From Lytechinus pictus (taxonomy: Eukaryota), in contig NC_087245.1 in assembly GCF_037042905.1 (NCBI RefSeq), positions 13,580,001-13,644,000 on the forward strand: a stretch of DNA of 64,000 bases. Direction: 5' to 3'. A program made the translations under genes and the position numbers. The notes under the pieces are model-generated. The model was not told where the DNA came from. It made no database searches and worked only from the letters and a program-made list of their open reading frames with translations. Below are positions 5,817 to 64,000 of the stretch, one piece after another; positions within the stretch are counted from its first letter, which is position 1; the number at the start of each line of letters is the position of its first letter.

Positions 5817-5963
5817 TATGTCAAAAGCTATAAAGGTAATGGGGTTTTCTCGGATATACAGGGTGGTTCATAAAATATATTCGTATGCATATGTCAAAAG
5901 CTATAAAGGTAATGGGGTTTTCTCGGATATACAGGGTGGTTCATAAAATATATTCGTATGCAT
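5817..5963 (+). repeat. Perfect 73-bp tandem duplication
   Basis: TATGTCAAAAGCTATAAAGG...ATTCGTATGCA occurs twice, starting at 5817 and 5890. Confidence 0.9.
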
Positions 5964-21689: not shown

Positions 21690-21998
21690 TTTGGAAAAAA
21701 TAACACCAAACTCGTCAGATTGCTCACATAATATATGATCCCTGGATCTATATTTTGCAATGACACGGAAACGGTGTACACACAGCTGATGTGTTCAATG
21801 TCATGGGCGGTGGGAAATTTTATTACCAGGCATCCAAGCTCTGATGCACTTCGGATAGTCTCTATTTTCAGACCTTAATATCTACAATTCTCTTATCTGA
21901 ATCAAGGGGTGGATAAAGGATTTTATAATCGAGTACAGAAAATTTATTCAAGAAAACTAGGGTTAAGAAAGAAAGACGTAAAGAAAAATGAGAAATTT

Positions 21999-27400: not shown

Positions 27401-30400
27401 ATAATCAGAAAATAAGGCCCACTGTGTTAGTATAAAAAATACGGCCCAATAAGTTGGTGTCATTCTCCACCGCTAAATTTTCATGAATGTTTAATACAGC
27501 TATATGGTATTTTCTTTTAAATGCTGAAGAAAATATTAAATGCTGATCGCCTAGCAAGAAGGCAGGATTTTTCTTTTTTTTAGTCTTTGGTATGACTCGG
27601 CCAGTAAATTGCCAATTCGTCTACTGCCAACTTGTCCACTCACCGAATTGTCTAGTTTCATTTAGTCAAATGCCACTCCGTCCATCAACATCACGACCAT
27701 TTGGATCAATAACCATTTGGGCCAATCATCATTTCGTCTCATAACCAGTTGGTCTATTTTTATTCATTTTGCACAATTAACACTAAGTAAAATTAGACCA
27801 AATGGTACATAGACTTAATGGCTATTGGACCAACTGGTTATTAAACGAAATGGTGAGTGGTCGAATTTGCAATTAGACCATGTGGATAGTGGACAGACTG
27901 ATGGTAGACCAAATGATAGTAGACGATCTGACAATTGGACGAATTGGCATTAGACGAATTTAAAATAAACCACTCGGTCGGAGATCGAACCGAACGTTCA
28001 TGAGGCGGGAGCTCTACCACTAAGAGAAAAGTTTACAGCTTTACAGACGCAAAGATTCGTCCATTATGTATCTTATGCATAAAATCCCGGGTCATATATC
28101 CGCGTCTGTTGGTGCCATACCCCTATCCGCGTAAAAATGAACTGAAATAAGGAATGACCTTATTTATTCTTACATACATATAAAAAAAAATGCGGTACAG
28201 CAAAGGTATGTAACTCCAAAAGATTATACTTACTCCAAACAAACTCGCCATCCGCGACTTTTTGTGGGGTCAGTGCAGCCCAGATATTATCCATGTACAT
28301 GGCATAGCGAACTGAAGAAGCAGGTAGACCTGATGCAAACATGTATTCTTCTACTTCCGCTTTTCCTTCTAAGTGAGGACATGGCTTCCCAATGGCCTTC
28401 TTGACTGACTGTAGGCCACTAAAGACAAAATGCTTCACGCCTACTTTCCTGGCAACGTCGACCATGTTTTTACCCTGGACGACGAGTTAACAAAACATGT
28501 TTGAATTACTTGAATGTCATTAAAAAAATAAGATTCTAGTATATTTTTTACCTAAATGAATATCGTTGAATAACTAATTTAGAAAACAACACCCATAAAA
28601 TTCTAGTCGATCCTTCCACCGGTCGTGGAACAAGATTAAATTTATTGGAACTTATTTCACATAATTTAATGCAATTAGCATTGTTTGAAATCTAAAGAAT
28701 GTAAGGGAAAGTATAGTCCAATCAGGACTTATTCTGGTTATGATTTTGTGTTAATTGCCCATATTGGCAAAAAGAATTAAAAGCGAACTTCATTTGGCAA
28801 AGGAATGTCCGTACGTCAAGATAAAAGCAAATCATATGAATAGTGAGAGAACATTCATATACTCTTCGCAAATAGTGTGCTTAGAGAGTCCGATGTTCTT
28901 CCCTTATTTGTAACCTTCAAGAATACTTGGAATAAATCTAAATCATAAAGAGAGCGCCCATAGTCATAAGAAAAGTCCATCAAGTCCTATGAAGCCCATC
29001 TGCAAGTAACTTCCAAGCATTACAAGTTTGATTTACAGCAATATAAACACTGAGTCTCTCATTCAATATTGATGCTCTTATAATTCATCTTACCATCTCA
29101 GTTTCTTTTGCTTGGTCCATCAATTCCCAGTAATTTGTCACAGCAAAGACACCGTAGCTCCCCTCCATGGCTTTCTCTAAAGAAGCGGCATCATCCATTG
29201 AGGCTTTCACCATTTCGACACCTTTAGAAATTCGAAAATGATAAAAGAAATAAATACACACATTTCCATACGACATAACCTTACATACCCACAAACTTTT
29301 ATTAGGAAAACAAGAATTCTTTTTATTTCATCGATTATAGAAAAACAGGCGGAAGGGCCTAGTGCCTTGTAAAATAAATGAATACATGAATGAGGCGTAA
29401 TCTTTGTCACAAAATCTGACATTAGTATTGTTATCATGCCCCTCTTCTGCGTCTTTCCCAATATTTGGCCCAAAACGCCTACAATGACTTAAACTGTATG
29501 CAATCATAAAAGATAGGGGTAATGCATTTCAGGTGAGCACGCGTGATCCAAGTGTGGAAGGTTCGAGCCCTGGTCACGTCTTTCGGATGGTGACGTTGAA
29601 GGTCTTTCCCAAATTTAAATAATCATATCTGATTGTCTGAATTACACAAATTTATCACGAGAAATTCTCGCATCTTTTAAAACCTATCCTTCCCCATAAT
29701 AGGTTTTTAACCTAGCTTGGCGAAAAAATAATTTGACAGTAAAGTATTCAATGATAAAATTTAAGCTTTTGGTAAGATTATGCGAATTCAGGTTTTAAAT
29801 AAATACTATTACCCCCCCCCCGAATGTCCCCCATGATCGAATTCCTGTTTTTAATACATGTAAATAGAGTATTAATAAATTAGGGCCTCAGTGGGAGAAT
29901 TGAAATAAGAAAGTTTATATCTTAAAAGGTGAAAATAAAAAATAATGATTTAAGGCGAAAACGATGATACTTGAAAGTTTTATGACTTTGATTTTTGGTT
30001 CAATATGACGATCGAGTTCTCCCCTCCCCCTCAAGGAATAGAAAGCGTGGGCGGATCGACATCCATGGATTTGAATATGAATAGGAAACCATGACAACCA
30101 AAGTCAACAATTTCTCTGAACACTCGACCTCCATGATGAAACCTCTATATTTGCGCGGTGACATTTCCCGCCGTAATCATCACCTTTTCATGATATGAAT
30201 CTTTGGAATGTCACATAAGCCCCCATACGTGATTGCGTGAAAATCATTAAGTAAAACTTCATCTTACCTTGTTGAGCAAGAGTTTTTGCCTTTTCGCTCT
30301 CCACATTTCTAGTGATTCCTCGAACTTTATAGCTGCCGTCCTGAAGAAGTGCCCTAACCAGAGAACCTCCTTGTATTCCCGTGGCCCCAAATACAGTGAT

Positions 30401-38517: not shown

Positions 38518-41500
38518 TACTACTACTACGTACTACTACTACTACTCTTGCTACTATTATTATCATCGTCATCATCATCATCAATTTTAACATTATAGTG
38601 TCAATGAGACTTTAGGTTTTTATGTAAGATTTTCCTCTACCCAGCCAGATTCATTCGGCATGGAAAGTCAAAGTACCATTATAATTTATTGATTTAATTT
38701 GATTTGAATTGACTTACACAATCATGTACTTTACGATTTTGCTAATGATAATGGACGTTGGATTGTTTTTCTTCAAAATATCTAATTATAATACTGTATT
38801 TGGTTTCTAATGCTATATGATTCAATATTGTTGCTTCAAGATCCAAACATACTCAATGAACTTTTTAATACTACATACCTTGGACTGGATGCTGACAGCG
38901 TGTGTGTATTTGAGTTGTGTCAGACGTGTATCAATCAGATATGATTATTTACGTCTGGGACCGACCTTTAACGTCACCATCCGAAAGACGTGACCAGGAC
39001 TCGAACCTCTGCATCGATTTTGTAACTTCCCCACATAGCTTGGATTACAGGCGCACGCCACAACGCCCAGAGAGTGACCGTCCTTTTTAAATACACCGTA
39101 ATGTAAATGTAAATTAAACCACTTGCGAACATAATTATGGGTGGGGCCAAAAAGGTTTCACGTATAAGAAAAAAATGAGAAAAAATGGAAAAAGAAAGAG
39201 AAAATGTTGAAATACGATATCACTTTCTAAATTTCAAAATATTTCACAATCATTTTTGTTGTAAAAAGGTCAAAAGTTTTGCTCGTTCGCTTTGCTTACT
39301 CGCAGAATTTAGACATTTTATTTCATACGCTATATTTTATTTCATACCTAAGGAAATACACAATATAGTCTACTTCTATTATCTCTCCTAAGCCAGAATG
39401 ACAGTGCATATGGAACAAATCTGTTTTCCTTGGACCCTATATACATGTAGGAATCTCCAAATAGTGGAGAGATCAGCTAAGAGAGAGATCTACTGGCCCC
39501 TCAATATTTTTGGTTCATTATACGTTATTGATTGAACCTACTTGTACTGATGGTGGAACTTGTATGATCTTGAACTCATAACTTACTCGGAAGCAATTGT
39601 AATGACTACATTTATATATGTTCAATAATATCGATCTCTTGTGGCAGATGGACTCAGAAACGAGAAAGATCTTTAAGGCATTTCACAGGGTACTGTACTC
39701 TATCCACTGATGTTCTTGTTGTTCATCAAGGACTTTCCAGACAATCTTTGCAGATCTGCAAATCTTTTTTTATTACGATTTTCATAAACGGCTGCTTCTG
39801 ATGAGACTTACAAAGTTTAGCATTCAAGGTCTTGGTCCGGGCTGAAAATATTTATATATAAATAAATAGAGTAAAATTCAAAGAGCAAAATGCTGAAAAT
39901 TTCATAAAAATCGGATAACAAATAACGAAGTTATTGAATTTTAAATTTTATCAATATTTTGTGAAAACAATTATATGCACATCGTCAGGAATATTCATTA
40001 GATGGGCTGATGATGTCACGTCCCCACTTTCCTTTTTCTTATGTTATTTATTTCAGTTTTATTTACGCAGGGTAGCCCTTTCAGTTATAGAACTGATTTA
40101 CAAAGAGGCCCTGTTATTACATGAAATCACAAATGTTTCATTTTTTCATTCATGTGTAAATGATGTGTCTCCATTATGATGAAATAAGTTGCGACAATAA
40201 ATAACTAATGAACCTAATCAGTTGTCAACCATTTAGTTCTTGGTAGCAAAATTTTTAATAAACCTTATTTCATATAATATATACAAAAGAACAAGTGGGG
40301 ATATGAAATCATCAACCCACCTAATGAATATTCATGAAGACATGCCAAGAACTGTTTCACAGGAATAATGCAAATCTTTAAATTCAACAACTTTGTTATT
40401 TGTAATCCGATTTTGATCAAATTTTCAGCATTTTGCTCTGTTAATTTTACTCTATTTAATAAGATATAAATATTTCCAGCCTGGACCATCCCTTTAATCA
40501 ACTTGAAGACTGGTAGAACTGATCGAGCTATATAGGTCTTTCAATACAAATGTTTTGTCGTCAAGAAAAGGGTCCATCAAACTTTCTGCAGGTTATATCT
40601 TCAAGAAGTTAGCTCTCATTCCTATGACCTACAGTTTAATGTGGACTTCTGCAACAAGTAGAGATATGACTCTCATTCCAGGATATTTACCTCTGAAACC
40701 GATAAGATGACTGGCTTGCTGAGAAAGTGGAAGAAGCTATATAGTTTTTAAGATCCTTGCCATGGTAATAATGATGATAGTAGTGATAATAAGAACAACA
40801 ATAATAACAATAGTAATAATGATATGATGGTGATTCTCTATGGCCCTCTTCCTTATTATTTACTAACGAGCTCCGCGGAAGAGTATTCGACTGTCATTTG
40901 TTATGTATTAAAAAAAATCATTTGCTAAGGACCAATAAACATTAAGTGCTGTTATTTGGTAAAGGGATTCGCTACTTTCTAACCCAAGTAATCTCAAACC
41001 ATTATACCAACAAGTCCTTTGCTCTATATATGATGTACATATAGTTAGTGGTTTGACTTCCATTCTGACCAATTGCGAGTTAACATTATATGAATATATA
41101 TGGACTATCTTAATATTCACATCACGCTTTAAGCAAGTTATATAATAAACTACTTTACAATTTGAATAAAATGGCAGTAAGGCTTAACATTTGCAAGTCC
41201 TGAAAAACAAGGAAATCATGAATAAAAATAATATTTACATCGCATCGTTACATATCAGAGGCGGATCAAGGATTTCCCAAGGGGGGGGGGGTGCATTTCT
41301 GTTCAGAAACAAAGGTCTTCACTCCCGATTAATGGTGGTTTATGTAAGCATGCATGACATTTTCCATTAACAATATTTTATTTGGCTCTCAAGGGGGGTC
41401 ACTGGCCGAATATGCCCCTACCTGGTCCCGTCACTGTTACATGATAGTATTTTACTTCCTCTACCGTTTCTTCGTCTCTTTCTATTCTCTACAACTTCCT

Positions 41501-43390: not shown

Positions 43391-46300
43391 AGTAGTAGTA
43401 GTAGATGACAATGATAATGATTATAATAGTAAAGCGTTCAAGGAAGACAATAATCTTTTTAAAAAAAGTACCCTGTACCATAATTCATGTTTCCAAAAGT
43501 CATTATTCAAATATAAATTATATTTCCCTGTAAAAAAAAAATAACTTTTTATGTCAAATATCGAATTGATAAAAAGTTTGTTTACATGTACATGGTGCAG
43601 TTTACGTGCTTTGGACCGCTGTATGACGTCTTCGTGTAAAACTAAAAAAAAATCGGCTATATTGTTTGTTCGACAATCGCTTGAATACATTTTGGAAAAT
43701 TGTTTTAAAAAAAATGTACTCCCAAAAGTACAACGGAGTAACACAGAGACCAGCATAATGTAAAGTATGTGCTGACAGACAGTTAACTAGATAGCGAAAT
43801 AGATACCTATACATGTAGATAGATAGACAGACAGACATATAAATAGATAGAAGGATAGAAGGATAGAGAGTTTCATTCAATTTTCTTCATCTCATCCTTC
43901 CTTTCCACTCCCTCTCTTTCCTTTTTCCTTCTCTCTTTTTTTTTTCTTTATTTTTTTGCGCTGCCAGTGGGGGGAGGGGGGGGGGGGCCACTTCGCCCCC
44001 TGGATCCGCCTATAGATAGAGTACATGTATATGGACACTTACAGCGTAACAAATATCTTCGTCTTTTGCAACTTTATGATCTTATATTTAGAAACCATCA
44101 TTATAATTCTAAACAAATTTAATGCTCAATCCTTGTTTATTTGTGTTCCCTTTTGCCGATTTTTTAAAATTATTCTATAGTGTTATTCGAAATTATGTAA
44201 ATACTTACCAAAAAAGTTTTAAAATCCAATCGTTACAGACATGAGATGATTTTTCGATTTCTTTTAAGTGTTATGGTATATTCCAATGACTTGTAAGACA
44301 TTATGCTATTGTCTCATCAATACATGCTTTCCAATGTCATTGCATTGGCGTAAACAGGGTAATAGGGAATGAAAGACGTGTATATCCTACTACACTTTTC
44401 AATAGAAGTTCTGAAATATAATAGCAATGCAGGGGAATATTTAAAAGGGGGACAGAAAAGAAAAAAAAAAGGAAAATGAACAGGTTTATACTTGCAGGGA
44501 CAAACAGTGTATGTTTGTAAAATGGGGAGGGTGGGCCTGTCCTCTGTACCCCCATCTGCACAATCGTGTATAAATCAGTAAGACAACCTGAGTTGCAATT
44601 TATACAACGGTTCAATATTTATTTGATATTGGGATTGAATTGATGGGATTACGATGGAATTTTCTTTATTATTTGATTTTGATTATTAGGGAAAATATAG
44701 CCTATAAAAAAAAAATCACATTTGCACGACTGTTATAAGGTACATGTATATCAACTCTGCAATGCCGAGTCTGCATTATGCATCTCGACATTCCAAAATT
44801 TGAATATTAAAAGCAAATCATCACATTCCGAGCATATTTTAAGACCGGTGCATTGATATTTCATTCCGTATGAACCAAATCACTCTGAGAATTAAAAGAG
44901 TGAACCATGACCCCTTGACAAATATTTCGTAAAACATCAAAGAGCTTTGCTTCCGAAGAACCGTGTGTATAGCGTATTCTGTATGAACGAATTCAAAAAG
45001 ATAATGGTATTTGAAAAACTGAGCAATATCGGGACCAGATTTCCGCCGCCTGTCCAACTGAGGAGTCTCTAGGTTGCATGTCATTGCACCGCTCCCGTCT
45101 CTTAACATAATTTTTACGCGTTCTTAAAGTCAGATTTTTTTTTAAATGTATAAGAATATGCACAATAAAGTTATTTAATTCTATTATATTTTGGATTCGT
45201 CCTGATGGAAATACAAAACAATCCAAATCCAACCCTCATCAGGTAATTTCCTTATGAAATAGAAAGATGCTTATTTTATAAACCAAAATTTGTTATAGAA
45301 TTTTATCATGATAATTATGGTTCTTGTATTTCTTATGATAAAAACCAATTTGAAATATTTTTTTTTTTTTTTTTGTAATTCATGTTTTATTGATCCTTTT
45401 CATCAAAATATACATAACAAAACATACATGATATAATGGATCACATATAAAAGTTCAGATGACGTTGGCATATAAAATAACATGTCTAACATACAGAATA
45501 GTATATAATAAAAAAAAAACATATGTTTGTATACAACAACACAAAAAAAAATCAGGCACTTGGCCTATATAAAAAAATAAATAAACATAACAAAAACAGC
45601 CTTCTGCTTTATCGCCTCTTTAAAGTATTCAGAATGATAGCCCACTTGCCATCATGTTTTTCTAATTTGCATTTCCTTTGTGCTATGGTATGTTCAACAG
45701 TTTCAAATGATAAAAGAAAGTTACAAAAATGGGGGAGAGTAGGTTTTGTTTCGTCACATCGACATCTAAAAATATATTGTTTACCTGACAGGAGCAGAAA
45801 GTTCAATATAAATATATATCTGGGAATTTGGGGCTTACAAATACCAAAAAGAACATATCTTTCTGAGAGGAAATCAGGAAGATCTAGTGAAGCAAAAAGT
45901 GTACCAACATTATTCCAAAATTGGTTAACAACATGGCAAGAATAAAAAAGATGCACTAGAGTTTCTGGTGATACTTTACAAAATGTACAAAGTGTATCAG
46001 TTACCTTGTTAATACGGAATAACCAAACCTTAGTAGGAATCAAATTATTAATAATCTTGAAATGTAAAGCTCGAAGTCTCGTATCTATAGTAGTACGTAG
46101 AGGTAGTTTTAAGAGTTCTCTTACTTCTTCTTGTTGAAACCCATAAGTGTCTTTTAAACGTGTAAATATATTCGAAATTGATGGGTTATTTTCATTCATA
46201 AAAAATGTGTAAAAAATATACTTTGGTACACCCGTTACTTCTCTAGTGATGCCATCAATAGTTAAAGTTGGAATCAATGAAATGTTGTCGACAATGGGAT

Positions 46301-49300
46301 GAAAGTTTTGAGATAGAAAAAATACTTTCCATTTTGATGGCATAAACTTGTAACAATCAAGAAGCAAAAAGTATTCAACAAATGTTAAGCCTTTATTTTT
46401 GGCATCTTTCCATCTTAATGGTCTGCCATACTCATCCAACATATGTGACACTTTAACAAAACCTTTGTTTTTTATCTCTGGCTTATAAAAAGATTTTCCA
46501 TTTTGTAATATGCATCTATTATTCCATAGCATTTGGTTACATATTTTTATGTTTTTTTGAAATACTGTGCTCCAACTAAGCATGACATCTTTATACCATT
46601 CAGGAATTGTCAGGTTTAAAATATTAAGATCATAATTACAATGGAATATAAAGTCACCACCTACATTTTGAAGCAGTGTTAACAGGATAATCTTCCATCC
46701 CTTTGAATTGGATGTAAAAACTCTTTGTATCCACTTGACTTTTTGCACTTGTAGAAGAGATTTTAAGCATATCATTTTGAGCCCCCCATCTTCATACTGC
46801 TTAACAAGTATCTCCCTTTTGATCCTGTCAGGGCCGTTCCAAATGAACCCAAAAACTAACTTATTAACTTCTTTTATATAATAATCTGGGATTTTTGACA
46901 AACTTGCAAGGTAAAGTAATTGCGAAAAGGCAAAGGTTTTGACAATTTGTATTTTGCCTATTAAAGATAAATGACGAGATTTCCATAAATTCAACTGTAC
47001 TCTAATTTTATCAAGTGTTCTTTGCAATTGTAAAGAAAAAACATTGGGTGAATAAGCTATATCTACCCCAAGAATTGTCAAAGACTTCTCAAACTGGATA
47101 TTCTCTAGTGAATGTTGATTATCTTTACAGGCTCCTATCCACATTGCCTTTGTTTTGAAAATATTGATAGAGAGTGATGATTCCTTTCGGAAATTCTGAA
47201 GTGTATTCAAAAGGTGTCTAAATGAAATATTGTCTGAAAGGAAAACCGTTATGTCGTCTGCATACAGCGACAATTTCAATTCTAAATTGTCCGATATTTT
47301 TAAACCATGTATTGTCTTGTTTTCACGAATATTTATGGCAAATGTCTCTATAGCTAAAACAAATAAATAAGGACTCAATGGGTCTCCCTGCCTAACACCT
47401 CTTTCAACGGGAAAATAACCCGATGACAGACCCCGATTCATTACCGCGCTTTCTAAATTGGTATATAAAACTTTAATAAAGTTACAAAATCCTTCTCCAA
47501 AATTGAATGATCGGAGGACGTTCAACAAAAAAGAATGGTCTAGTGAATCGAATGCCTTTTGGAAATCCAAACTTAATAATATTCCGGGAATATTTTTCAA
47601 GTCGGAAAAGAAAAGAGCATCTTTAACTGTCCTGACAGCTTCTCCAATAAATCTGTCCTTTATAAATGCTACCTGATCGGGGTGAATCAAATCAGGCAGA
47701 ACTTTCTTTAATCTTTCTGCAAGAGCTTTAGAACCAATTTTCAAATCAACATTCACTAGAGTGATGGGTCGGTAATTTTCGATTAACATTTTGTCTTTCC
47801 CTTTCTTTGATATGAGTGTAATTAAACCTTGTCTTTGTGAACTAGAAAGTTGACCTTGTTGAAAACTGTAGTTAAGATTATCTACCAAAAGCTGTCCAAT
47901 TTTACCCCAGAACTTGCGATAGAATTCAACCGTTAGACCGTCGTTTCCCGGTGACTTATTTTTTGACATAAGTAATAGGGATGATGTACATTCCTCTAAC
48001 GTTAACGGCAAGTCACATTTACTCTTGGAGTCCGAGGATAACTTTGGAATATTTTCTTGTCCTAAGAATAAGGAGTTTTGCCTCGAGTCGACATTAGGCT
48101 TTTTATATAATTGTGTATAGAATGATTTTATTTCTGAATTAATATTTTTCATATCTGTAAGTATACAATCGCCTTGCTTAAGTTTAAAAATTGACGATTT
48201 ATTTTTGTGGCCTTTTTCTAAATTAAGAAAAAATTTAGTATTTTTCTCCCCAAATTCCATCCAATTTGCTTTAGACCTTAATATGATGCCTTGTGTTATA
48301 TAATCTAAATAAGACTCATATTCTCTTTCAATCTTTTTATATTCCTCAGCATGCCTTTCACCCTCGGAATCCAACAGAAATTGCAACCTTTTTAGCCTGT
48401 TTTCCAGTTCTCTTCGCCTTTCTTTCCTTTTCCGTGCCTTTTCAATACTGTATTTACGTGAAAATAGGCGAATATTATACTTGAGAAATTCCCAACCTAT
48501 TCTCATATCATCAAATTGTGAAATATCTTTAATCCACAGATCTAAATTTTTCGTCATTTCAGAACAAAACACTTCATCCTCGCATAGGGTGTTATTAAAT
48601 TTCCAATTCATAGCATTACATCTTGTTTCTTCTTGTACTTTAAATTCTAAAATAATAGCCAAATGATCAGAACCCACTCCGGGTATCATATCTACCTTGC
48701 TGATATAATCCTGCAGGGTCTCGGAGACAAACCAAATATCTAATCTACTTTGGATTAAAGGCCGCAATTGTTTCCAAGTATATTTACGCGTGATGGGGTT
48801 ACGTACACGCCATATATCAATGACATCTAAATCACTCTGTAATTTTTTAAGTTGACTGATTACTGCCTGCGAGGTTGTTGGATGACCACCTTGTCTGTCA
48901 ACATTCATGTTTAAAATCACATTAAAATCGCCCCCAATTAATAGAGGAGTAGTCCCAATATCATCAAAAGAATTTAAGGTACATAATAAATGGTCAAAAA
49001 ATATTTTTTGTTCACGTTTCTTATCAGCTGTTGGTGCATAAACGTTACAAATTATAAATTCATTGCCGTCTATAATAATTCTTAAAACCAAATATCTACC
49101 ATTACCTGAAACATGTTTAGAAATGATTTTATAATCTAGTTTTGAATTGATAAGTATCATGACCCCACTACTATGAGGAGATCCGTGACAAAAGAGTACA
49201 TCACTGCCCCATTCCGAAGACCAACTACTTTCTACGTCTTCTGAACTATATGTTTCTTGTAGGAGAGCAATGTCGATTTCTTTTTCTCGTAACCAACCAA

Positions 49301-52300
49301 ATACCTTTTGCCTCCGAAACCCTGATCTTAGACCTCTCACATTCAAAGACAAAAACTTCATGCTCGTTTCTTTAAAACCCATAGCAAGGTATCATATCTG
49401 TAACTTTGATATACATGTACCAATCCACAAACACATACATGTAACCGTGCATCCCACATGTACATGTACTTATGACAGGTGTCAGATGTATTGCTTTGGC
49501 TTGCACCTGTAACATATAGAAGCCTAAATATAACTTTCCACTGTTGCAAACACCATTCCTAAGTACCGTTACTATAAAGACTAATGTAAATTTCAAAATT
49601 GTACATTGAGCAACTGCCCTAACAGTAGTTGTTTTCCAACACTTGGAATTTGTTTTGCTTTCAGCTGACGCAAGAGAACTATAAAAAGAACATCTTTGGC
49701 AAAGGCAAACTATGTACATAGAAACAATATACAAAGAAAATTTAAATGTGTAACACTTGTACACGAACAAATACATTGATAAATGTGAAAAAATTAAGAC
49801 ACGTCTGACTGATCGAATGCTAGACATGAGGAACATGTCAAAGACATGAAACCTTAAAGGAGCTAACAAACCCACCCTTTAACATGTTTACAAAATTCAC
49901 GAATATTACTGGAGGGAGAAACCACAATGGTCAATGTGGCAGAAAAAAAAATAAAAAATTCTATTCAATGCAGTATATAGGGCAAATAAATATCAGTATA
50001 AAAACAACTGATCAAAAGTTGTGTGTTCATTTCCAATGTCAATAGCACTTTGTGTTCAATAAAATAAATGAACTTGAATTTTGTTCTCTGTAATTGTAAA
50101 CGAAATGAAGATCGAGAATGCAAGACCGCTATTCTTTATGTATTTCCCATTTCTGGGTTCCTTTTTCTCTGTAGAAGAGGACCACTTTCGCTCTAACAAC
50201 CGTTATTTTAGTAGACAGCTTCTTTTCTTTTCTCAACTTGTATGCAACTTTGGCCAACTCACTGCGTGTTGCCTTCAGTGCTGGAGGCAAGTCTGTTCTC
50301 ACTGTAAGCCTAGATGTTTCTTGTGTAACAGGTGGGTATCTCCATTCGACTCCTGTGGTGTTTCCAGTCGAAGCATCTGTGGCGACTCTCTTCTTGTAAG
50401 CTCGCTCTTCGAACGCAGCTAAGACTCGATTACGTTGTGACATATAGACAAACTTGGCTATGATAGGATGGGGGACACCTTCTTGTGAGTGGCGTTGGGG
50501 TAGCCTATGCACATTGATAAGGCAAACGGCCTCCGCTTCCTCTTTGCTCAAACCAAGTAGAGTAAAAACATGGCGAATCACGACATAGACATTTTCTCCT
50601 TGCTCCATTTTGACCCCGTAGAATAAGAGATTATTCTTCCTCTGGTATATCTCTGATTCGATGAGCTTTGTACGAAGTTGATCAACCTCCTTCCTTAGGT
50701 CGCTTTCAATCTGAGGAAGCTTCTCTTTCTCGATAATATCGACCTTCGATGCATTAAAATCAACTGCTGCTTCTAAGTCATCCACTTTCGTCTTGATCTG
50801 ATCCAAATTGTGTTGTAAACCATCTAATTTTGCACAGACTCTAACTTCAGATTCCCGTATAGAGCGCATAACATCTGCGAGCGTGAATGCACTCTCCGGT
50901 TCACCCGTGCCCTCCGGCGTTGGTGTACTGGTTTGTGCCGTTGACGTTGACGGTGTAGATTGTTTGGTGCGTTGGCCCTCGGACCAACGCACCTCGGACC
51001 AACGTTCCGTATGAACCAAATCACTCTGAGAATTAAAAGAGTGAACCATGACCCCTTGACAAATAGAGCTTTGCTTCTGAAGAACCGTGTGTATAGCGTA
51101 TTCTGTATGAACGAATTCAAAAAGATAATGGTATTTGAAAAACTGAGCAATATCGGGACCAGATTTCCGCCGCCTGTCCAACTGAGGAGTCTCTAGGTTG
51201 CATGTCATTGCACCGCTCCCGTCTCTTAACATAATTTTTACGCGTTCTTAAAGTCAGATTTTTTTTTAAATGTATAAGAATATGCACAATAAAGTTATTT
51301 AATTCTATTATATTTTGGATTCGTCCTGATGGAAATACAAAACAATCCAAATCCAACCCTCATCAGGTAATTTCCTTATGAAATAGAAAGATGCTTATTT
51401 TATAAACCAAAATTTGTTATAGAATTTTATCATGATAATTATGGTTCTTGTATTTCTTATGATAAAAACCAATTTGAAATATTTTTGCTGCATGATGCAG
51501 AATCTCCCAAAATGGCAATTTCCTTGTGTGTAAAGATCGATACAAATGTGACGTCATTCGAACTTTGGCAACTTTGGAGGCAGGGTAGATAATCGCCTCA
51601 CATAATTTACCCTTCAGAGCTGAAACAGACGTGTTGTGTTGCCACTGCTCATTCGGCCAGGTGGAGGCCTATGACTATTGCATGAAAATATGTATTTTCT
51701 TCGTATCAATAGAAAGACACGTCGAAGAGTTGAAAAGATATTTCACGCTCTACGAGTTCAACAATATATGCCCTTCTCTCTGTGAACCACACGGTTCGGG
51801 CGGTGAGGTATACCACGCCCTACGTAATTACTCCTCGCATGTAGACTATAACAAATCTATAATTTCTATAAGTCACATAAAGTTTTGGGAGATTAAAAAA
51901 ACTTAAATGCAAAAAAAAAAAAATATCCAGACCAAGAAAAGTTACACAAGTGACATGGTTTAACAACTGATTGGGCACATAAATAACACCTCATTGTAAT
52001 ATTAAGAAACCATTTAATTATAAAGCTCGGTGCTTGTTAACCTGTTAATCTACAAAATTTCATTTATGAGAAACGATGGTTTCTTCTAACATGTCTGGAA
52101 GCTATCAAGGACCAACCTGACATGCTGGTTAAACATAAAAAACATATTAGGATATACATGTATATACACGTTATTCTTTTTTCTCGACTGCATGTGAATA
52201 GGCCTATATTATTATTTATGTTTTGCTCAGGCCTCCATGAATTCCTGTGCTAAAATTTTTTGTTGATATGTGACACTAGTATACTATTATTTTCGAACAT

Positions 52301-55300: not shown

Positions 55301-58300
55301 TTTTAAATATTTTTTATGAGGGTGAACTTCCCCTTTACATGTAAGAAGAGCCCCCCCAAAAAATAAAATATGCATATACATGTATAACAATATTAATTGA
55401 ACATCAACACCCTTAACAACTAAGAAAAGATGGAAGAAATGTATTGGATAGGTTGCAAGCAGATTTTGAGATTATTTTCTCACCAGAAGAGATATTTCAA
55501 TCATTGGTACAATTGAATCATTGGTATTGTTTTGTGTCGTTTTCATATAATGGCTGAAGCTTTTCAATAGTGCTTCCTGTGGGATAGGAGTTGGACTTGT
55601 ATTTTGAAACTGTCTTGTTTTTATATTCAGGTATCAAAATGAGCTTCCTTTTCAATCTAAAGATTATTAAGCAATCTCTTTGATATACACGTATTGTAGA
55701 TGTACATGTAGTAGTGCATCTTTTGTTGATGCTAGTGTAACAAGTACATAGGGTGTCATATCAATGCACTGTTGAACTTTGAGGATAAAGTTTATTCTAT
55801 GTGTGTTTAACACCAAGTTAGATTTCAATGTCATTTTAAAATAAAAACCTGTGGCTTAGGTTATCATTTATAGTATGAATAGTGGATGATTTCATTACTT
55901 CTCTTTTCTACCCACAGATCTAGCAGTCGACAGTGTTCTCATAACAAAATTAATGGGTCTTCCTCTCGTGGAACAACAAGAAAAGACTTTAACAGTGGGT
56001 ATTATGGTTGGGACTACAAATGTACCAGCAGTCAATGGCATAGAAGTTCCTCATCCTGGCCCTTTCCAATTTAACTACACATTGGCTTCGGGTTCCAATG
56101 CTTCAAATGCTGTTGAGCTTGTTCAGATATCGAGTAGATTGCTAACGGCAAGGCCACTGTCACCTGGAGAGCTGTTTCCATATAAAATAGATGGTAATTA
56201 GTTTCTAATTTAGACCTCTGGATACCATGTCTTGCTTCTAGGCCCGTTTCGGGTACATGTGTACATGCCCGGTCAAGTCAGTGCACGTGTACTGAATTCC
56301 ATGACCTGTACACGGTAGCATCTGTATAAACCTTGTGTTGGAGTTGTAAACAAGTCAACAGTTATATAATTGAACACAATTCTATTACCATGCTCACAGC
56401 CTCACATTAATTCTAAGTTCTCAGATACTGCAGAAGTTTTAGTCACTAAAATTCCACTTTCATACCCACCCTTGAAGTTCTGTATTTTAGCCAGAAGCCA
56501 CAGCACTCACATTATTTTAATGAATGAAATCTGTCTTCGGCCGGCCCTGGGCACAGGCAGCATGCACTAAGTTTACTTACGATGCAGTGATGTTATGCTT
56601 GATAAAACAATGAGCTACAAGCTTTTTGCCGCACCTTTTCGTAGTAACTACTACTTGATGTATATTTCCCTAAAATGAAACCTATTACTTTATTACACCT
56701 CCTGCATGGACTGAAATCATTCCTCCACTCTGTACAAGGAATCTTTCCCTAAAATTGATTGTTGATAATGATATTTACCCTTTATTAACAATTTTAATCT
56801 ATATGTAGGTTTATGAATGATTGAAGTTTTGAAAATAATCAGAATCTAGTAATCAACAGCATGGTGCACTTGTAACAAAATTAGAATCAATATATTAAAA
56901 TCATAAGCCTGGTTTATAGAGGAATAATACATTGAGTTGTTTAATTCTCATCCTTTTTGTCTTTGTGTTTTCTTTACAGATTTGAGGGTCTCCCTATCAA
57001 ATTATGGTTGTGATGAAATCTCTCTGCTCTGTGTGGAAATTATTTCTGAACAGCCGTTGTTGACATTGACTGGATCACCTAAAGGTTGTATTCAGATCAC
57101 ATGTAGAGGTAAGTTGTATTATTATTTTTTATTTATTTATTTTTTTGTGGATAGGCAGATGGGGTCCTTACAGGCAGAAATTAAGTTATTTTTTAGGAAC
57201 AAGATCCTTTGCAAATTGCAACCCCCTTTTTTTGCTTGTAAAAAACAAACATAACTTTGGTCTCTATCTTGCTCTTGAGCTCAAGAGTTTCTCATTTCAA
57301 TCATTAGGTGGGAAATAATTTCAGATTGTCCAATCTTTATTGTAGTACAGTATCAGACTATATGGTCTTACAGATACTGTGACGTAATACGTTCAAAATG
57401 ATGATGTATCAGAATAATAGGTCCCTCACAGGTTTGGTGATATGGTAAGCTGTCTGCATCTACAGGTGAAGAAATAAAATAAGTCCACATATGTTCTACT
57501 ACACTACACTACTACTAAAAATCGGACGCATCTGAGAATGAATCAACAATGGTACGCCAGGCTTCGCGATCTGACATATGTTCTAAGTCTCCTCCAAAAA
57601 GATGGATTTCAGTTTTCTACTATTAGACATTCTATTGATCTTTCACTGACGACTTCTAGTATCCTCAAAGATACGTAATAAGCAGCTCTAAATTAGAAAA
57701 CAGATGAGAAGGTTCTTTTTTAGGATGAAGCTGATATACTTATCATTTTCCCCCCATCGTCCATAGCATGCCATCACACCATAAAGCTGAGCATAAAACA
57801 GAGTTAAAAGTGATGGATGTGATGATTGATGCAGTATTATGTATACATTCTGAAGCTAAACTTCTGAAACTCTGAAATATATCCTCACAGAACATATAGT
57901 ATGAATAAATCTTACCATGTATTTACTGATGTTGAAAAGCAGAAGGATTTTTGGAAATGCAATGTTGATAGATTTTATGCAAATCCTGAGATGTTTTCTT
58001 GTATTTTACGTGTAGGAGTGGTAATAACGTATGTGGATCCAGTAGAACTTCAAACATCAACATTGAATCAAGGAGTACCAAACAACAATGTCAGGTTAAC
58101 GGTTAGCTTTGAGTCGGACCCAAATTATGCTTCCGTTTCAGGTAATTTGAATGTCTTATTCTTCAAATTGGGAACCGGAGGTTTTTTTTTTACTGTTATT
58201 ATGTAAGATTTCATAAATAATTTATATTATTTGCCTGGATAGTGTTTTCGTTGCACTGCTAATGGAGGGCTGTAGAATTTGTTTTTTTCTCTAATAATTT

Positions 58301-61300
58301 CTGAAGCATCGAGCAAAATATACTGATGCAGTGTATATCAGCACATTGTATATTATAAAGACTTTTGACAAATGTTTGTGTGTTAAATATAGTATTTAGG
58401 GTTGTGCATCATTGGGCTCAAACATGGTCGGTAAGCCTGAAAGAAATGGATGAGGTATGCTCTTATCTGTATTTCTTAGTTTTTATTAAAGATTACTCTT
58501 ATTTATCATAATGGATAAATTGGAAAATGATTTTCCATTGACTGTTTGCTTGATGATAAGCAATGCATGTACACATATTTTCAGAAAAATATTATTCCAG
58601 ATTTACTTGAAATGTTTGTAAGTTCCTTTACTATTTCAAAAATCCAAACGTTTATATTATTATTCAAGTAAAGTTGGAATCCTATGGACTATTTCTTGTA
58701 AGTTTAGTAAAAAAAAGTCACTTTAATCATGTATTTTCCTTTGCTTATTTGTAGAGGTCTGTACTAGAAGTCACGAAATGCCACATCTTTGAAGAAATCT
58801 TGGTAGTCTTACATGTACCATGATTTTTAATGAATAATTCTTCAACAAACCTGGCAGTGAATAGGTGCAAAGAAACTGATAAGATAAAAATTGATAATTG
58901 AATTAATTATACATGTATAGTGTAGTTGTACTTCTACATAAAACCATGTACAATTGAAACAATTGCTTGCATATTTATAAAGTAGATTCATTAGTTAAAG
59001 TGTTTCATTTGAGTGGTATTCACTCAGATTGGTGGTTTTTATTTTTATTGTTAAAGGGGAATATCTGTGGGACCCCAATGTGTTTGGGAATGGTAACCAG
59101 TTTGGCACTAAAAATCCCAGGGTTGATGGAATGACCACATTGACTGCTGTATCTAACTATGGTATCAACAGTATGGCAACATCTGTATGGCCAGAGGTAT
59201 GTTCATTAATATTGTTTATCTTGACCATTGGGGAGCTTTTCTGGAATTTTGATGAATTGTCTTCTATCTTCAAATTGGCAACTGTCTGATTTAAAAGAAT
59301 GATATATTGTAACTTGATTTTCATGCAATTATATCATAATTCACTTATTTTATTTTATTAATTTATTTTCACTTATTGAAAATTGAATATGATTGTAATT
59401 GTTATTGGACAGGGCCTATCCATAGATGGGCATGGATATAGTGATCATGTATTGTTAAATATGTTGCCAATCTGAAGAATTGAATGATTAATTACGACTT
59501 AATGCTTAAATTTGAGAATGGTACATTATGTAGGTTTGGAAATGGACTCAGGAGTTAAAGTGGATTTTCCTCTTTCTGCTTATGCATGATTTGAAGTACT
59601 GCACATTCTGATTGGTCCTTGATCAGTGTTATGAATAGTGTGCATACAACACTGATCTCGATTGGTCATTTAGCAATTGATTGCTAAACCTTTGCATTTA
59701 TAGCACCCTGCTAATTTACCAATGATATATTTAATATTTTACAGTTGGGAGTCATGATTGATCTCTCCGACTATGGGTGTCCTGAGGCTCGTTTTATCTG
59801 TGTGAATCCTCGAAGGAACAGCTCCAGCACAGTGCAGTTTTCATTGAGTTTCATTCCAATGTCTGCCCAGTATGGATGTGCAGAGGTTGAATGCGCTGGT
59901 AAGATTATCAGGGTTTGAAGGGAATCACGTAAAAAGTGAGGGAATTGGGGTAAAAGGAGAGATTTTTTTAAAATGTGACAGAAGACAAAGAGGACCAAGG
60001 TTCCTTGTGTCATCTTCCCAAACGTGAATGTTCTCTGATGATATTTTGAAAGGTGTACACTTTGAACAATAGTGTGTCGGCTTGGTAGCTACCTGTAATC
60101 AGCCAAGAACCAACAGCTCAAACTGTCCAACTTGCATTATGTATGTGCTGCTGATTGCCCAACTAGCATGCCCATAAATTCACTTTATCTGCACACTCAT
60201 ATAGTGAGGTGTCACAAAAAAACTTCTTTTATTGAACGACCTTATTCTTCCTTGGTAGTGGTCATGCATCAGATTTTGAGTAATCTGAAGTTCTTAAAAT
60301 CACTATGTTTTGTATGAATTCACAAATGACTTGATACTTCATCTTTCCTTCTGTTATGTCTTCAAAGGCTTTGTAATATGTGCTTGAAAGTAATTAAATA
60401 CATGTATGGCTCATGCAAGATTTCTCTTAAACCCCTGCTTAAACTAGCCCTGGGTGCATGACATGTGATCAGTTTGGAATTCCACTTTGTATGTCATCAT
60501 CTCACATGATTGGTGATTTTAAGGAGTTATTTTTTTTCTTTGTGAAATAAAAAAATTACTCTGAACTTTTCTGACCTGAAAGGAGTGGTGTGCTTGGCTA
60601 TTTCAATCTACACACCAGCAATGAAGTAGTAAAAACGAATACTTCTCATGTACATGTAGCTATAGTATAGATCTACACATTTTTCCAAGGAAATATATAA
60701 ATATAAATACATTTTCAGTGAAAGATGGAATTTATGGTAGACTTTACCTTAGAATGTAATATTTTTTTCATTAATTCTTACTGTACTGCTTTGCAACCCT
60801 CGATACTTGTATTCATTATATATCTAGTCATGTGAACAAGATGTATTGTTCTGCTTCCTATGGTTTATACAAGTTTGGAAAGCGTAGGCATTATCTTGAT
60901 CAGGACACCACAGCAAGACTTGTTCTTGCATTTGTAATGAGCCATATTGATAATTGTAATGGCCTATTGTCTGGTTTGTCCGACGTACAGATCAGTAGAC
61001 TGCAGCGAATCCAGAATTCTGCTGCAAGGGTTGTCACTAAAACACACTCTCGAGAATCAGTTTCTCCTACACTTAATTGGTAACCAGTGAAATATAGATT
61101 GATTTTCAAACTTCTTGTAATTGCTTTTAAATGTCAGCATAAAGTGGCCCCTTCACACATTGTACTTACAACAGCTTCTCAATGAGTATCACCCCGTTAG
61201 GCAACTACGTTCAAGTAACAGAAAGATGTTCTTCACCCTAAATTTCATATGGACAAAGAGCATTTCAATATTCAGTCCCTCAACTATGACATCAACTTCG

Positions 61301-64000
61301 CAATGATACTAAAGAATGTTCTTCTCTTGATCTGTTTAAGTCTCTGTAAATTCTCTGTAAATTCATCTTTTCCAAAGATGAATTTTAATTTTCTTATGAT
61401 GCATTATCAAATTCCAAATTGTCAAAATTCCATTTCAATATGTATAATGATGTTTTCAGCTTATGTTTAATAATGTATTCAGGTTCAATATATTTTTTTC
61501 CTTTTCTTTCTCCCTCTCTTTCTTTCCCATACTACCTTTTAGAGCTATAAGAGACTTAACTGTAATTTGCACTATATTTTCAAAAACATAACTCTATTGA
61601 ATTGATATTTCCTATACTATTTTCATGATTAATTTGAAGGGGTGGAGTTCATTGGCGGAACCTTGTCTACAAATTCCAAGTTTGCAGAGTTCCGGAGCAT
61701 GCATGAGATCTCCTTCAGTGGTAGCTTTGAATCAGATCCTAGCAAGGGGGGTGTCCAAGGACACAAGCTGTGGAGGGTGAAAGGTTATGCCTCTAACACT
61801 AATGATACCGGTAGCAGCACCACCTCCACTCCCATCTCAGAAGCTACTACTTTAGCAGGTAGGAATTGGAATTGCATGTCACTTAGTAATAATAACCCCT
61901 ATGTTGTATATTTGGTTGTTAATCTCACAGTATCTTATCTATGCATCAGATGGAACAGGTGATTGTGGTTATTTGTTCTTTGTGACATTGTTCAACATTA
62001 CTTCTCTTCAATCAATGATTTATTGCTTGCCAAATTCTTCAGTTTTCTCAGTGTTATCTGGACTTAACACTCTGTCCAGCCGTACTTGTACAACAAGTTG
62101 ACATGAACTACCAGGGCTTATTACAATCAAAGGCCATTAACTAGAAGGAAAACAATTATTTTGAGTATTTTTCTTTATTGGTAGGTGAAAGTTGAATTAA
62201 AGCTAGATTTTCTTCAAAATGTGAAGGTGATAATGATTTCTTTTGGTATTATCTCAAAAACTGAGTTGCATCCTTCTGTTGGCCAAGCATCTATTATGTA
62301 TGATATTTTCAGGCTTTTTGTTCAGACATTCATACATTCATTACTGGATCCTTTCTTAATACATGTATCTGCACCCTATTAATCATACTTTATGCATAGA
62401 TCGAATGTGTATAAACCTGGTTTCAAACCACATATTATTCAAAATCAACTTTACCAGTTCATGAGATATGACAGACATACAAGTCTTTACCTAGCGTTAA
62501 GTAGTAAACAAGGATGCAACGTCCAAAACATACAGTATATTGGTAACAGAATTGCAATGACCATTTTAACCCCCCCCCCCATGTATTTATACTCAACAGA
62601 TAATGTCATCGATCAGGACCTGTCACCTGGAGCCTCCCTGAGTTGGGTTGGAACAACCTTTGTCATATTAGATCTATCCACAGTCAGCTGTAGCTCTCTC
62701 GTCTACTTCTGCATCTTGGCTGAAAGGAACCCCGACTCTCAGAGAAAAGATCTATCACCTCTTAATTTCGATGTTAACTCGTACATCGTTTGTGAGCAGA
62801 TAGAGTGTGTGGGGCTTGAGATCGACACACTGACACTTACCCACAACGCAGATCAAGGTGACCCTCTGCGGGAGTTGGTAACCGGCAACCAGGACTTCTA
62901 CTTGGACCTGACCATTGATCCTCTTTCGACCAGCGGCGGTGTGTCGGGTAACTGGACATTTGATGTCTACTTCAGTGACATGCAAGACTGTTCGAGTACG
63001 CCTACCAGTCTTCCGACCATTACTGTTGTTCCCTCAATGAAACAAATCTACCAAGACGTGGATGGACAATTGGTCACAATTGAAGGGATTCAAGTAAGTG
63101 TCTTGTACCTGATCAATCACGATACATTCATGCAGGAATAAGGTTTGTTGCTTACAGCTTCATGGAAGGAATACCCCCTCCCCCTCATGATAATCAATAT
63201 TAATGAATTAATATAGAAAGGAAGGAATAAATTGATAAAATGAATAAATAAATAAATGAACAAGATATGAAAAAATGAATGCAAAAAAATTGAATAAAAA
63301 ATGAAATAGGACATAAATACAATAATAAATGAATAGATAAATGAATGAATGAAATACATGTAATACATCCAAATTATTGTACCATAAAAACTTTTTTCTT
63401 GAAATTCTAAAATCATTAGATTTATGTCTATGTACATACACAATATAATTAAGTATCTCAATTTTTATTAATGCAAAATGTATAGATTTTCTGGTGACAC
63501 TCATGTGCCTTACAGAAAATTTATTCAACACTATTTAAGTGGTCTAGGGCTGCTTTTATTCATATTCACAACCTTGGAGCATGGTTTAAAACTTCTGTTC
63601 AAATCATGGCTGCATTCAAGCTACAATGTAGTTTGCTTGGTTGTATACATAAAAAGTCTTTCACAAAGAACAAAGAATGTGCATTTTAAAAGGATTTGCA
63701 GGATAAGCCTTTAAACAAAGAACTACTTTTATGAACAAAAATAGCTGAAATCTGGCTGCAATGACCATCTATGTGTTTTAATATTTATTACTCTAGTTAA
63801 AAAAAAAAACATGTAATGTACCATACATGGTATCTGTAATTTATTTATCATGCAGGCACTATTATTGTTATGTTGCTACAATTGTTTGTTCTTATGAACA
63901 AATCATATTGATTTGGTCTATTTCTTCTCAGGTGAAGGTTGATCTGTCAAGGTTTGCATGTTCAAGCGCTCCGTACATGTGCTTAAATTTAACCAGTGCT
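38232..64000 (+). CDS. Uncharacterised secreted/extracellular protein with tandem ~140-aa four-Cys repeats; 3'-partial. Exons: 38232-38297, 54526-54556, 55918-56193, 56980-57108, 58016-58141, 59057-59196, 59745-59898, 61640-61858, 62600-63093, 63932->64000
   Basis: gccATGG start at 38232. Exons 1+2 splice to MAVVSWTATCRLFAVLMLTLCLCFIQRVHS|QT (signal-peptide-like). All exons have AG/GT ends and chain in frame. The motif (D/S)LSxxxCx6C...Cx4CxG(V/L) recurs. Linking exon 1 across 16 kb is an inference from phase and signal-peptide fit. Confidence 0.8.
38443..38582. repeat. (CTA)n compound microsatellite
   Basis: Seen directly in the sequence. Confidence 0.9.
38899..39070 (-). mobile_element. 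Short SINE with 7SL RNA Alu-domain-like head, B-box, DeuSINE-like core and (CA)n tail
   Basis: The - strand begins CTGGGCGTTGTGGCGTGCGCCTGTAATCCAAGCTA. B-box GGTTCGAGTCC at 38997-39007. Core CGTCTTTCGGATGGTGACGTTAAAGGTCGGTCCC. Related copies at 29532-29650 and 24757-24798. Confidence 0.75.
39833..40493. mobile_element. Second copy of the same Kolobok-like MITE (left tip eroded), carrying a 63-bp retro-insertion
   Basis: Colinear with 22600-23176; right end CTGGACCATCCCT|TTAA. Confidence 0.85.
41256..41436. mobile_element. Degraded hAT-like MITE
   Basis: CAGAGGCGGATCAAGG ... CCTGGTCCCGTCACTG; flanks TTACATAT / TTACATGA. Confidence 0.55.
41816..42178 (+). mobile_element. tRNA-derived SINE with (TTA)n tail
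   Basis: A-box TGGCCCAGTGG, B-box GGTTCGAATCC, central GCACTCAACCCAGGTG...GGGTACC, and a 3' GCGCTATATAAAT followed by (TTA)n. Confidence 0.85.
43122..43430. repeat. (GTA)n/(ATA)n compound microsatellite
   Basis: Seen directly in the sequence. Confidence 0.92.
44864..45362 (+). repeat. Long direct repeat copy 1 (499 bp), putative target-site duplication
   Basis: Identical to 51005-51486 except for 17 extra nt (44924-44940) and C44954 vs T51078. Confidence 0.95.
45609..49382 (-). CDS. ORF2: APE endonuclease + reverse transcriptase + C-terminal CCHC zinc knuckle, 1257 aa, uninterrupted
   Basis: APE motifs SLNVRGL, LQET, NVYAP, GGDFN, SRLD, SDH. RT motifs KSPGNDG, NYRPITL, DFQKAFD, GVRQGDPLSP, YADD. 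C-terminal CTFC-x8-H-x4-C. Confidence 0.97.
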   Translation of the reverse strand: MGFKETSMKFLSLNVRGLRSGFRRQKVFGWLREKEIDIALLQETYSSEDVESSWSSEWGSDVLFCHGSPHSSGVMILINSKLDYKIISKHVSGNGRYLVLRIIIDGNEFIICNVYAPTADKKREQKIFFDHLLCTLNSFDDIGTTPLLIGGDFNVILNMNVDRQGGHPTTSQAVISQLKKLQSDLDVIDIWRVRNPITRKYTWKQLRPLIQSRLDIWFVSETLQDYISKVDMIPGVGSDHLAIILEFKVQEETRCNAMNWKFNNTLCEDEVFCSEMTKNLDLWIKDISQFDDMRIGWEFLKYNIRLFSRKYSIEKARKRKERRRELENRLKRLQFLLDSEGERHAEEYKKIEREYESYLDYITQGIILRSKANWMEFGEKNTKFFLNLEKGHKNKSSIFKLKQGDCILTDMKNINSEIKSFYTQLYKKPNVDSRQNSLFLGQENIPKLSSDSKSKCDLPLTLEECTSSLLLMSKNKSPGNDGLTVEFYRKFWGKIGQLLVDNLNYSFQQGQLSSSQRQGLITLISKKGKDKMLIENYRPITLVNVDLKIGSKALAERLKKVLPDLIHPDQVAFIKDRFIGEAVRTVKDALFFSDLKNIPGILLSLDFQKAFDSLDHSFLLNVLRSFNFGEGFCNFIKVLYTNLESAVMNRGLSSGYFPVERGVRQGDPLSPYLFVLAIETFAINIRENKTIHGLKISDNLELKLSLYADDITVFLSDNISFRHLLNTLQNFRKESSLSINIFKTKAMWIGACKDNQHSLENIQFEKSLTILGVDIAYSPNVFSLQLQRTLDKIRVQLNLWKSRHLSLIGKIQIVKTFAFSQLLYLASLSKIPDYYIKEVNKLVFGFIWNGPDRIKREILVKQYEDGGLKMICLKSLLQVQKVKWIQRVFTSNSKGWKIILLTLLQNVGGDFIFHCNYDLNILNLTIPEWYKDVMLSWSTVFQKNIKICNQMLWNNRCILQNGKSFYKPEIKNKGFVKVSHMLDEYGRPLRWKDAKNKGLTFVEYFLLLDCYKFMPSKWKVFFLSQNFHPIVDNISLIPTLTIDGITREVTGVPKYIFYTFFMNENNPSISNIFTRLKDTYGFQQEEVRELLKLPLRTTIDTRLRALHFKIINNLIPTKVWLFRINKVTDTLCTFCKVSPETLVHLFYSCHVVNQFWNNVGTLFASLDLPDFLSERYVLFGICKPQIPRYIFILNFLLLSGKQYIFRCRCDETKPTLPHFCNFLLSFETVEHTIAQRKCKLEKHDGKWAIILNTLKRR
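50129..51004 (-). CDS. ORF1: L1-type RNA-binding protein (S/T/P-rich N-terminus, coiled coil, RRM); native start probably lost, frame stays open into the duplicated flank up to an ATG at 51232
   Basis: Heptad region LDGLQHNLDQIKTKVDDLE...LRKEVDQLRTKLIESE, then RKNNLLFYGV, HRLP, PIIAKF and DLPP motifs typical of L1 ORF1p (Transposase_22 type). Confidence 0.88.
   Translation of the reverse strand, partial: RWSEVRWSEGQRTKQSTPSTSTAQTSTPTPEGTGEPESAFTLADVMRSIRESEVRVCAKLDGLQHNLDQIKTKVDDLEAAVDFNASKVDIIEKEKLPQIESDLRKEVDQLRTKLIESEIYQRKNNLLFYGVKMEQGENVYVVIRHVFTLLGLSKEEAEAVCLINVHRLPQRHSQEGVPHPIIAKFVYMSQRNRVLAAFEERAYKKRVATDASTGNTTGVEWRYPPVTQETSRLTVRTDLPPALKATRSELAKVAYKLRKEKKLSTKITVVRAKVVLFYREKGTQKWEIHKE
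51005..51486 (+). repeat. Long direct repeat copy 2 (482 bp), putative target-site duplication
   Basis: Matches copy 1. It ends in TTTTT, which in copy 1 runs into the element's poly(T). Confidence 0.95.
54883..55334. mobile_element. Kolobok-like MITE
   Basis: TTAA|AAGGGAAAGTTCATCCT ... AGGGTGAACTTCCCCT|TTAC, with internal inverted arms. Confidence 0.65.
60828..61360 (+). pseudogene. Decayed L2-clade LINE 3' fragment (RT C-terminus)
   Basis: RRHYLDQDTTARLVLAFVMSHIDNCNGLLSGLSDVQISRLQRIQNSAARVV is typical of L2 ORF2; stops and frameshifts follow. Confidence 0.82.

Follow-up and report, generated by a model that had tools for sequence, protein, structure and literature searches.

An apparent large target-site duplication around a young L1-clade element in Lytechinus pictus

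A 64,000-nt stretch of the Lytechinus pictus genome (NCBI RefSeq assembly GCF_037042905.1, contig NC_087245.1, positions 13,580,001 to 13,644,000 of the forward strand; hereafter the window, numbered from its first letter) contains a long interspersed nuclear element (LINE) of the L1 clade. The element lies on the minus strand between two direct copies of a host segment of 0.5 kb (Table 1). We conclude that the feature is very likely genuine and belongs to a known class, namely, an L1 insertion with a large target-site duplication (TSD), found here in a new host group, and that the insertion was probably inherited. With fair confidence, we attribute it to one aberrant insertion of a young element that left a 0.5-kb tandem duplication, or "large TSD," as a one-off event. 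We favor this reading because the boundaries of the repeats coincide with the poly(A) end of the element on one side and with the end of a 20-nt filler on the other.

An earlier note on this sequence had described the direct repeats, and a global alignment reproduced their coordinates, their lengths, a 17-bp insertion or deletion (indel), and a change at a CpG. Apart from one 17-bp gap, the left copy (A) and the right copy (B) aligned over 482 bases, of which 481 were identical; the single substitution was a C>T within the CpG (44954 versus 51078). With the filler counted as insertion, the repeats bound the inserted sequence at both ends. Each copy terminates in five T's, as had been noted, and the left copy enters a tract of 17 T's (45358 to 45374); this tract and an AATAAA signal support the T-rich primer proposed earlier for the poly(A) end. 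The length of the duplication (482 to 499 bp) is far outside the range of canonical L1 insertions (~5 to 30 bp). A self-BLAST found no third copy of the segment within the 64-kb window, and there was no short duplication outside the pair, the longest word common to the 30 nt of each outer flank being 5 nt. A long terminal repeat (LTR) reading was rejected, as TG..CA ends and an outer TSD are absent. The 94-aa open frame that runs through copy A had no meaningful match in Pfam or the Atlas, and these searches provide no evidence for exon duplication. An exact 26-nt pattern of the repeat had no match in JGI metagenomes. Separately, a contig of another locus in public run X16 matched the segment from 45157 rightwards, and part of the duplicated segment may thus be an old dispersed repeat.

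The element had been labeled L1/Tx1 with intact open reading frames (ORFs). Its membership in the L1 clade holds, as judged from the domain set of ORF2, the type of ORF1, and a poly(A) tail primed at a T-rich nick. ORF2 is indeed intact. Its four Pfam matches include Exo_endo_phos (4e-13), RVT_1 (2.8e-34), and zf-RVT (3.2e-7), with no restriction-like endonuclease or other second nuclease domain among them, and the frame ends ~105 aa past the CCHC motif. In a ranking against PDB chains, human L1 ORF2p was the nearest solved structure (5e-92, versus 6e-23 for R2). ORF1 is not intact, having lost its start codon with the whole 5' untranslated region (UTR). It gave no useful Pfam or PDB match by sequence; when its AlphaFold model was searched with Foldseek, all 11 matches with an E value of ≤0.001 were human L1 ORF1p, and ORF1 is accordingly modeled as the coiled coil-RRM-CTD type. 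Among 85 homologues of ORF1, the 6 that were named all came from echinoderms, and each of the 16 that were aligned had a Met start near the truncation point. No ORF2 relative was confirmed among 57 pattern matches in JGI metagenomes, and one distant reverse transcriptase (RT) match (31%) was present among 180 matches in viral contigs.

Members of the Tx1 subgroup insert sequence specifically into a repeated target. Here, the target is single copy in the window and one sister copy of the family also borders ATATTTTT/G (see below); Rfam had no matches in the window, and therefore no RNA-gene target is indicated. Three host ATGs are in frame with the truncated ORF1 as a joint result of the 17 bp missing from copy B and the 20 nt of filler, giving an open frame of 372 codons (50129 to 51247, minus strand). 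An in-frame upstream ATG preceding any stop was found at 29% of 18116 random junctions, and we rejected the host ATG as a meaningful feature.

To place the segment and the element, we used contigs of 4 out of 19 public runs, compared with positions 43990 to 51004, a span that holds the left copy only. Runs X6 and X13 represent two related organisms (A and B, respectively), X16 and X17 are the runs closest to the window, and all findings from them are among the matches listed. The element differed from its counterparts at 4 of 4396 nt in X16 and at 6 of 4486 nt in X17; because the differences are so few, the copy is, on sequence comparison, very young. The segment is by the same comparison host DNA and not element, because family 5' ends differ, because it is continuous with the flank, and because depths contrast. 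Specifically, family copies in both related-organism runs continue into their own, different 5' end, and in X16 and X17 the segment is continuous with the left flank. In organism A, the segment and the left flank had similarly low depths (17 to 36) while the element reached 150 to 3200, and in organism B the element was at high depth with zero depth on the segment. The earlier note had reasoned that the segment would belong to the element if it occurred at the 5' end of other family copies; neither related-organism run showed this, and the host origin stands. The left copy is, moreover, located beyond the poly(A). Ownership of the segment by the element, as a terminal repeat or a 5' transduction, is therefore scarcely credible, even though ATGs in the right copy share the reading frame of the truncated ORF1, an event expected by chance at the 29% given above.

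These runs also differed in how the element and its surroundings compared with the window. In organism B, the element was ~95 to 98% identical (45375 to 50984) and the spacer ~95%, with no flank at ≥85%. In organism A, the flank was ~90 to 94% identical, and many element contigs were 95 to 99% identical. Horizontal transfer, a young shared family, or an RNA run could account for this contrast.

The right repeat had been thought to abut the element exactly, but the 20-nt filler intervenes. Because contigs of organisms A and B extend past 50982 into a start codon and a 5' UTR, the natural end of this copy can be placed at 50984, a few bases within ORF1. The filler is made of an inverted and then a direct copy of junction-proximal sequence, as in templated junctions; the matches are exact, and 0 of 200000 shuffled fillers could be explained likewise. 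Folding of the natural end is weak alone (-1.8 kcal/mol), so that the snap-back would have been primed on very few pairs. A direct copy requires the complementary strand as its template, and the slip would therefore belong to second-strand synthesis. There is no microhomology of the junction to the start of the repeat. In X16 and X17, position 50984 is the exact end of the element contigs; contigs of the left flank extend to 44893, overlapping by 30 nt the next contigs, which begin exactly at 44864. If the filler joins the element to the start of the repeat, branches should occur at just these points, and in both of the closest runs the contigs are broken on either side of the 5' junction.

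Related junctions have been described. Insertions made by the R2 protein include a class of junctions with snap-back before 5' joining (PMC11371274), and repair by Pol theta characteristically leaves short flank-templated inserts (PMC5068794). The present junction resembles both in its inverted copy of the end of the complementary DNA (cDNA) and its short flank-templated filler before joining. Unlike here, the passages of these two sources that we draw on make no tie to long duplications.

Three features can be read from the sequence: the poly(A) end sits at a T-rich priming site, the cDNA is nearly full length but breaks off just inside ORF1, and its end served as the template for a 20-nt filler. 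The five T's common to the T tract and the right copy imply an empty site of ATATTTTT/G. We propose that ORF2p nicked the plus strand at this site (45362) and primed reverse transcription there. The cDNA end, just short of full length, would have remained unjoined, folded back, and gained 9 nt. Second-strand synthesis would then have started at a host DNA end 499 bp distant, copied ~13 nt, slipped back on a 2-nt microhomology, and gone to completion. Two sources of the distant end can be envisaged, either a second-strand nick far from the first, accompanied by strand displacement, or synthesis of the replication type proceeding on the same chromosome or its sister. That integration was coupled to repair or replication had been suggested from the length of the repeats, and the templated filler supports this as the trace of an aborted and restarted join.

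Table 1. Features of the insertion and its target, in window coordinates
Feature	Position	Strand	Remarks
L1-endonuclease-like site ATATTTC/A	44856..44863	+	Just outside the left breakpoint, on the strand of the priming nick; the putative cut falls 1 nt ahead of the repeat
Left copy (A), host segment	44864..45362	+	499 bp; has the extra 17 bp (44924-44940) and C at 44954
T5 primer at first-strand nick	45358..45362	+	Inferred empty site ATATTTTT/G
Poly(A) tail	45363..45374	-	12 nt beyond the target T5
3' UTR	45375..45608	-	234 bp; AATAAA at 45386-45391
ORF2	45609..49382	-	Uninterrupted, 1257 aa from Met; APE endonuclease, reverse transcriptase with YADD, C-terminal CCHC
Noncoding inter-ORF spacer	49383..50128	-	746 bp; covered by family contigs in 4 of 4 runs compared
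ORF1 (modeled as coiled coil-RRM-CTD)	50129..50984	-	Cut just inside the start; start codon and 5' UTR absent
Templated filler, 20 nt	50985..51004	+	9-nt inverted copy of 50966-50974 (snap-back), then 11-nt direct copy of 50979-50989 (slip)
Right copy (B), host segment	51005..51486	+	482 bp; without the 17 bp, T at 51078
Host ATG in frame with truncated ORF1	51047..51049	-	Further ATGs at 51208 and 51232

Sister copies of the family offered a comparison of target sites. Of the four "behind" loose ends that X16 and X17 contained in the body of the element, we counted two (46612 and 46871) and set aside one that represents a diverged relative (46159) and one that was ambiguous (46049). The loose end at 46612, present in both runs, is another 5'-truncated copy of the family followed by ATATTTTT/G, the same 9-mer as at the nick site. 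This 9-mer has a background of 0.03 to 0.09% within 13 nt (a post hoc figure), compared with 3% for TTTTT/R. The flank of this sister hints at a target preference combined with a short TSD of ~8 to 12 bp.

Several observations weigh against a single, one-off insertion. Among the matches listed, no contig or read extended over the element or over either junction, and the joint from 51004 to 44864 was not among the 13 joints listed. X16 had 0 records crossing the ends of the stretch compared. A contig of X17 crosses the end of the repeat unbroken, where a branch would be expected if the 3' junction were in its graph; that junction fell in a skipped poly-T zone. X16 and X17 come from one study and may be the assembled animal itself. 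No empty allele was seen in these k-mer contigs, which collapse the repeat; organism A holds both the flank and the segment, with no contig linking them among the matches listed. Among the sister copies, the second clean junction (46871) has no T-run in its first 30 nt. Finally, the L1-like site one base from the left breakpoint would not be predicted by a distant second-strand nick.

That last observation bears on a different mechanism, in which the repeats are a pseudo-TSD produced by two cuts. Different chromatids or homologues would each be cut by ORF2p at one of two similar same-strand sites that lie 0.5 kb apart, and a single cDNA would bridge the right primed end to the trimmed reciprocal left end; alternatively, two neighboring insertions would have recombined later. 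The left breakpoint lies 1 nt from ATATTTC/A, which resembles both the priming site ATATTTTT/G and the sister flank at 46612. However, 4.4% of background positions have a generic L1-type site at a distance of ≤1 nt, and the narrower motif, for which the figure is 0.2%, was chosen post hoc. Two cuts would account for both copy differences together, and left-flank contigs differ from the window at a similar level, by one substitution and a gap per 800 to 900 nt. Bridging of two L1-cut sites has been documented in tumors (10.1101/2024.08.27.596794), although the tumor cases in that source join distant sites whereas two cuts within 500 bp are required here. Flap trimming that leaves a 0- to 20-bp deletion is described for 5'-truncated insertions (PMC11702581). 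A contig of organism A (X6 record 23) also departs from the window near this point: it matches the left flank as far as 44862, where the endonuclease-like site would be cut, and then has 16 unaligned letters, which may reflect an indel or a separate insertion. All considered, we regard the two-cut origin as rather unlikely. An 8-bp inverted repeat (44856 to 44863 and 45351 to 45358) links the breakpoints as well; it has a chance probability of ~2%, or 4% when direct repeats are allowed, and was not used.

If the two cuts fell on homologues, the event would be an unequal crossover bridged by L1, with copies A and B representing two alleles. In its germline form, two ATATTT(T/C) sites 0.5 kb apart would be joined by one cDNA, and the "TSD" would be the scar of the exchange. 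We consider this a long shot, less probable than two cuts in general. If true, L1 would make allele-mosaic tandem duplications and exchange flanking markers in the animal germline, and such an L1 crossover would be recognizable because both breakpoints carry an endonuclease site on the priming strand.

The differences between the copies were previously read as a sign of error-prone fill-in because both lie close to the 5' junction. Both changes do fall within the first 91 bases (P = 0.03, or P = 0.07 for either end), and ~0.9 to 1.3 substitutions between copies would be expected if each had aged like the element, which is an upper estimate. Given this divergence and this degree of clustering, error-prone fill-in is unneeded; later mutation or conversion, allelic origin, or a phase switch suffices. 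At the 17-bp indel, microhomology is limited to 1 nt, and no template for it was found in the window, where the best other match had 3 mismatches. Organism A carries C at 44954, which is probably the ancestral base, judging from this comparison. In X16 and X17, the B variant was found alone. Had a fill-in error altered the right copy alone, B would be outnumbered in a heterozygote and as frequent as A in a homozygote, and the B-only runs therefore lean against such an error, with the caveat that contigs of this kind drop variants and that RNA runs could bias the signal. The B-only runs would better fit an allelic origin or a phase switch in the assembly.

This brings in the possibility of an assembly mis-join, with the duplication present on no single chromosome. 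In addition to the B-only runs, the depth ratios of the repeat-bearing contig to the left flank (2.1 and 3.3) were nearer to three copies (2.3 and 3) than to two (1.3 and 2), a weak hint given that contig depth is not a copy number. A full artifact, however, needs two different novel junctions, a haplotype switch would not create the templated filler, and the 5' junction has contig breaks on either side in both samples, all of which make a mis-join improbable. A weaker form, which does not exclude the other readings, has a genuine if minority chance: the duplication would be real, perfect, 482 bp long, and of type B, with copy A taken from an empty homologue by a phase switch.

A one-off large TSD is consistent with what is known of human L1. 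The earlier note had stressed rarity, which overstates the surprise, given that TSDs of >100 bp occur in up to 10% of engineered events in HeLa cells and in 57 to 91% of events in cells deficient in nucleotide excision repair (PMC5223499). Small tandem duplications made by L1 have been termed large TSDs and ascribed to break-induced replication (10.1101/2024.12.14.628481; earlier version, PMC11702581). As described in these sources (PMC5223499; 10.1101/2024.12.14.628481), the human cases share with ours an APE-type L1, a poly(A) at a T-rich nick, 5' truncation, hundreds of duplicated bases, and locally templated extra sequence at the 5' junction. They differ in being engineered or somatic, in cell lines and tumors, whereas ours comes from an invertebrate assembly, is presumably germline, and has copies that differ. 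The zebrafish element ZfL2-2 produced a 1228-bp TSD in 1 of 25 wild-type events in DT40 cells (PMC2666801), likewise a rare one-off, although from the L2 clade and in a reporter assay. HERV-K (HML-2) loci have TSDs of 111 to 450 bp, for which a pseudo-TSD model has been put forward (PMC5488345). They too are inherited insertions with long flanking duplications and raise the same doubt between true TSD and recombination, but they involve an LTR element and integrase chemistry. The parts of 10.1101/522623 and PMC10249811 consulted report ordinary TSD lengths only. We found no title or abstract opening on long L1 TSDs in echinoderms in literature searches that covered few subscription journals.

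Long TSDs can also be a trait of a family. More than half of the insertions of Dualen-4b in Chlamydomonas reinhardtii duplicate >50 bp, with a median of 900 bp, and the rotifer element R9 has a 126-bp TSD (as cited in PMC9977147, the source for both). Like our case, these are natural LINE insertions between very long target duplications. It is nevertheless very doubtful that the L. pictus family habitually makes TSDs of hundreds of bases, despite the Dualen-4b precedent and the absence of a nearby T-run at one of the two clean sister 5' junctions. Two sister 5' flanks were readable, neither with its paired 3' flank, and no relatives with flanks turned up in the searches of metagenomes and viral contigs. 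In Dualen, the trait possibly depends on two nucleases (PMC9977147). Here, ORF2 lacks the Dualen-type combination of APE and restriction-like endonuclease in one ORF, with no second nuclease among its four Pfam matches. In addition, the other sister junction resembles a TSD of ~8 to 12 bp, and the filler indicates a failed join and not a programmed cut.

Elsewhere in the window, we observed a tandem pair of diverged multiexon genes ~9 kb apart (~15700 to 21700 and 25200 to 30400), one exon of which matches the NmrA-like family (PF05368; 1.8e-15). Two related elements resembling miniature inverted-repeat transposable elements (22591 to 23180 and 39820 to 40498) have inverted arms of 117 to 193 bp. 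Several open frames on the plus strand (~55900 to 63140) resemble exons of a host gene with beta-rich repeats and had no meaningful Pfam or Atlas match among those tested. A perfect 73-bp tandem duplication occupies 5817 to 5962.

One locus cannot settle where second-strand breaks come from, and the finding would gain importance if phasing showed that the repeats are two alleles or if long TSDs proved to be a habit of the family. As a one-off event, the insertion is a clean natural case of a rare L1 outcome known mainly from cell culture and tumors. Insertions with large TSDs duplicate host sequence, can be excised again when their repeats recombine, and escape callers designed for short TSDs. 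At this locus, the junction keeps a legible record of how a cDNA end was joined: a snap-back, a slip, and a distant end.

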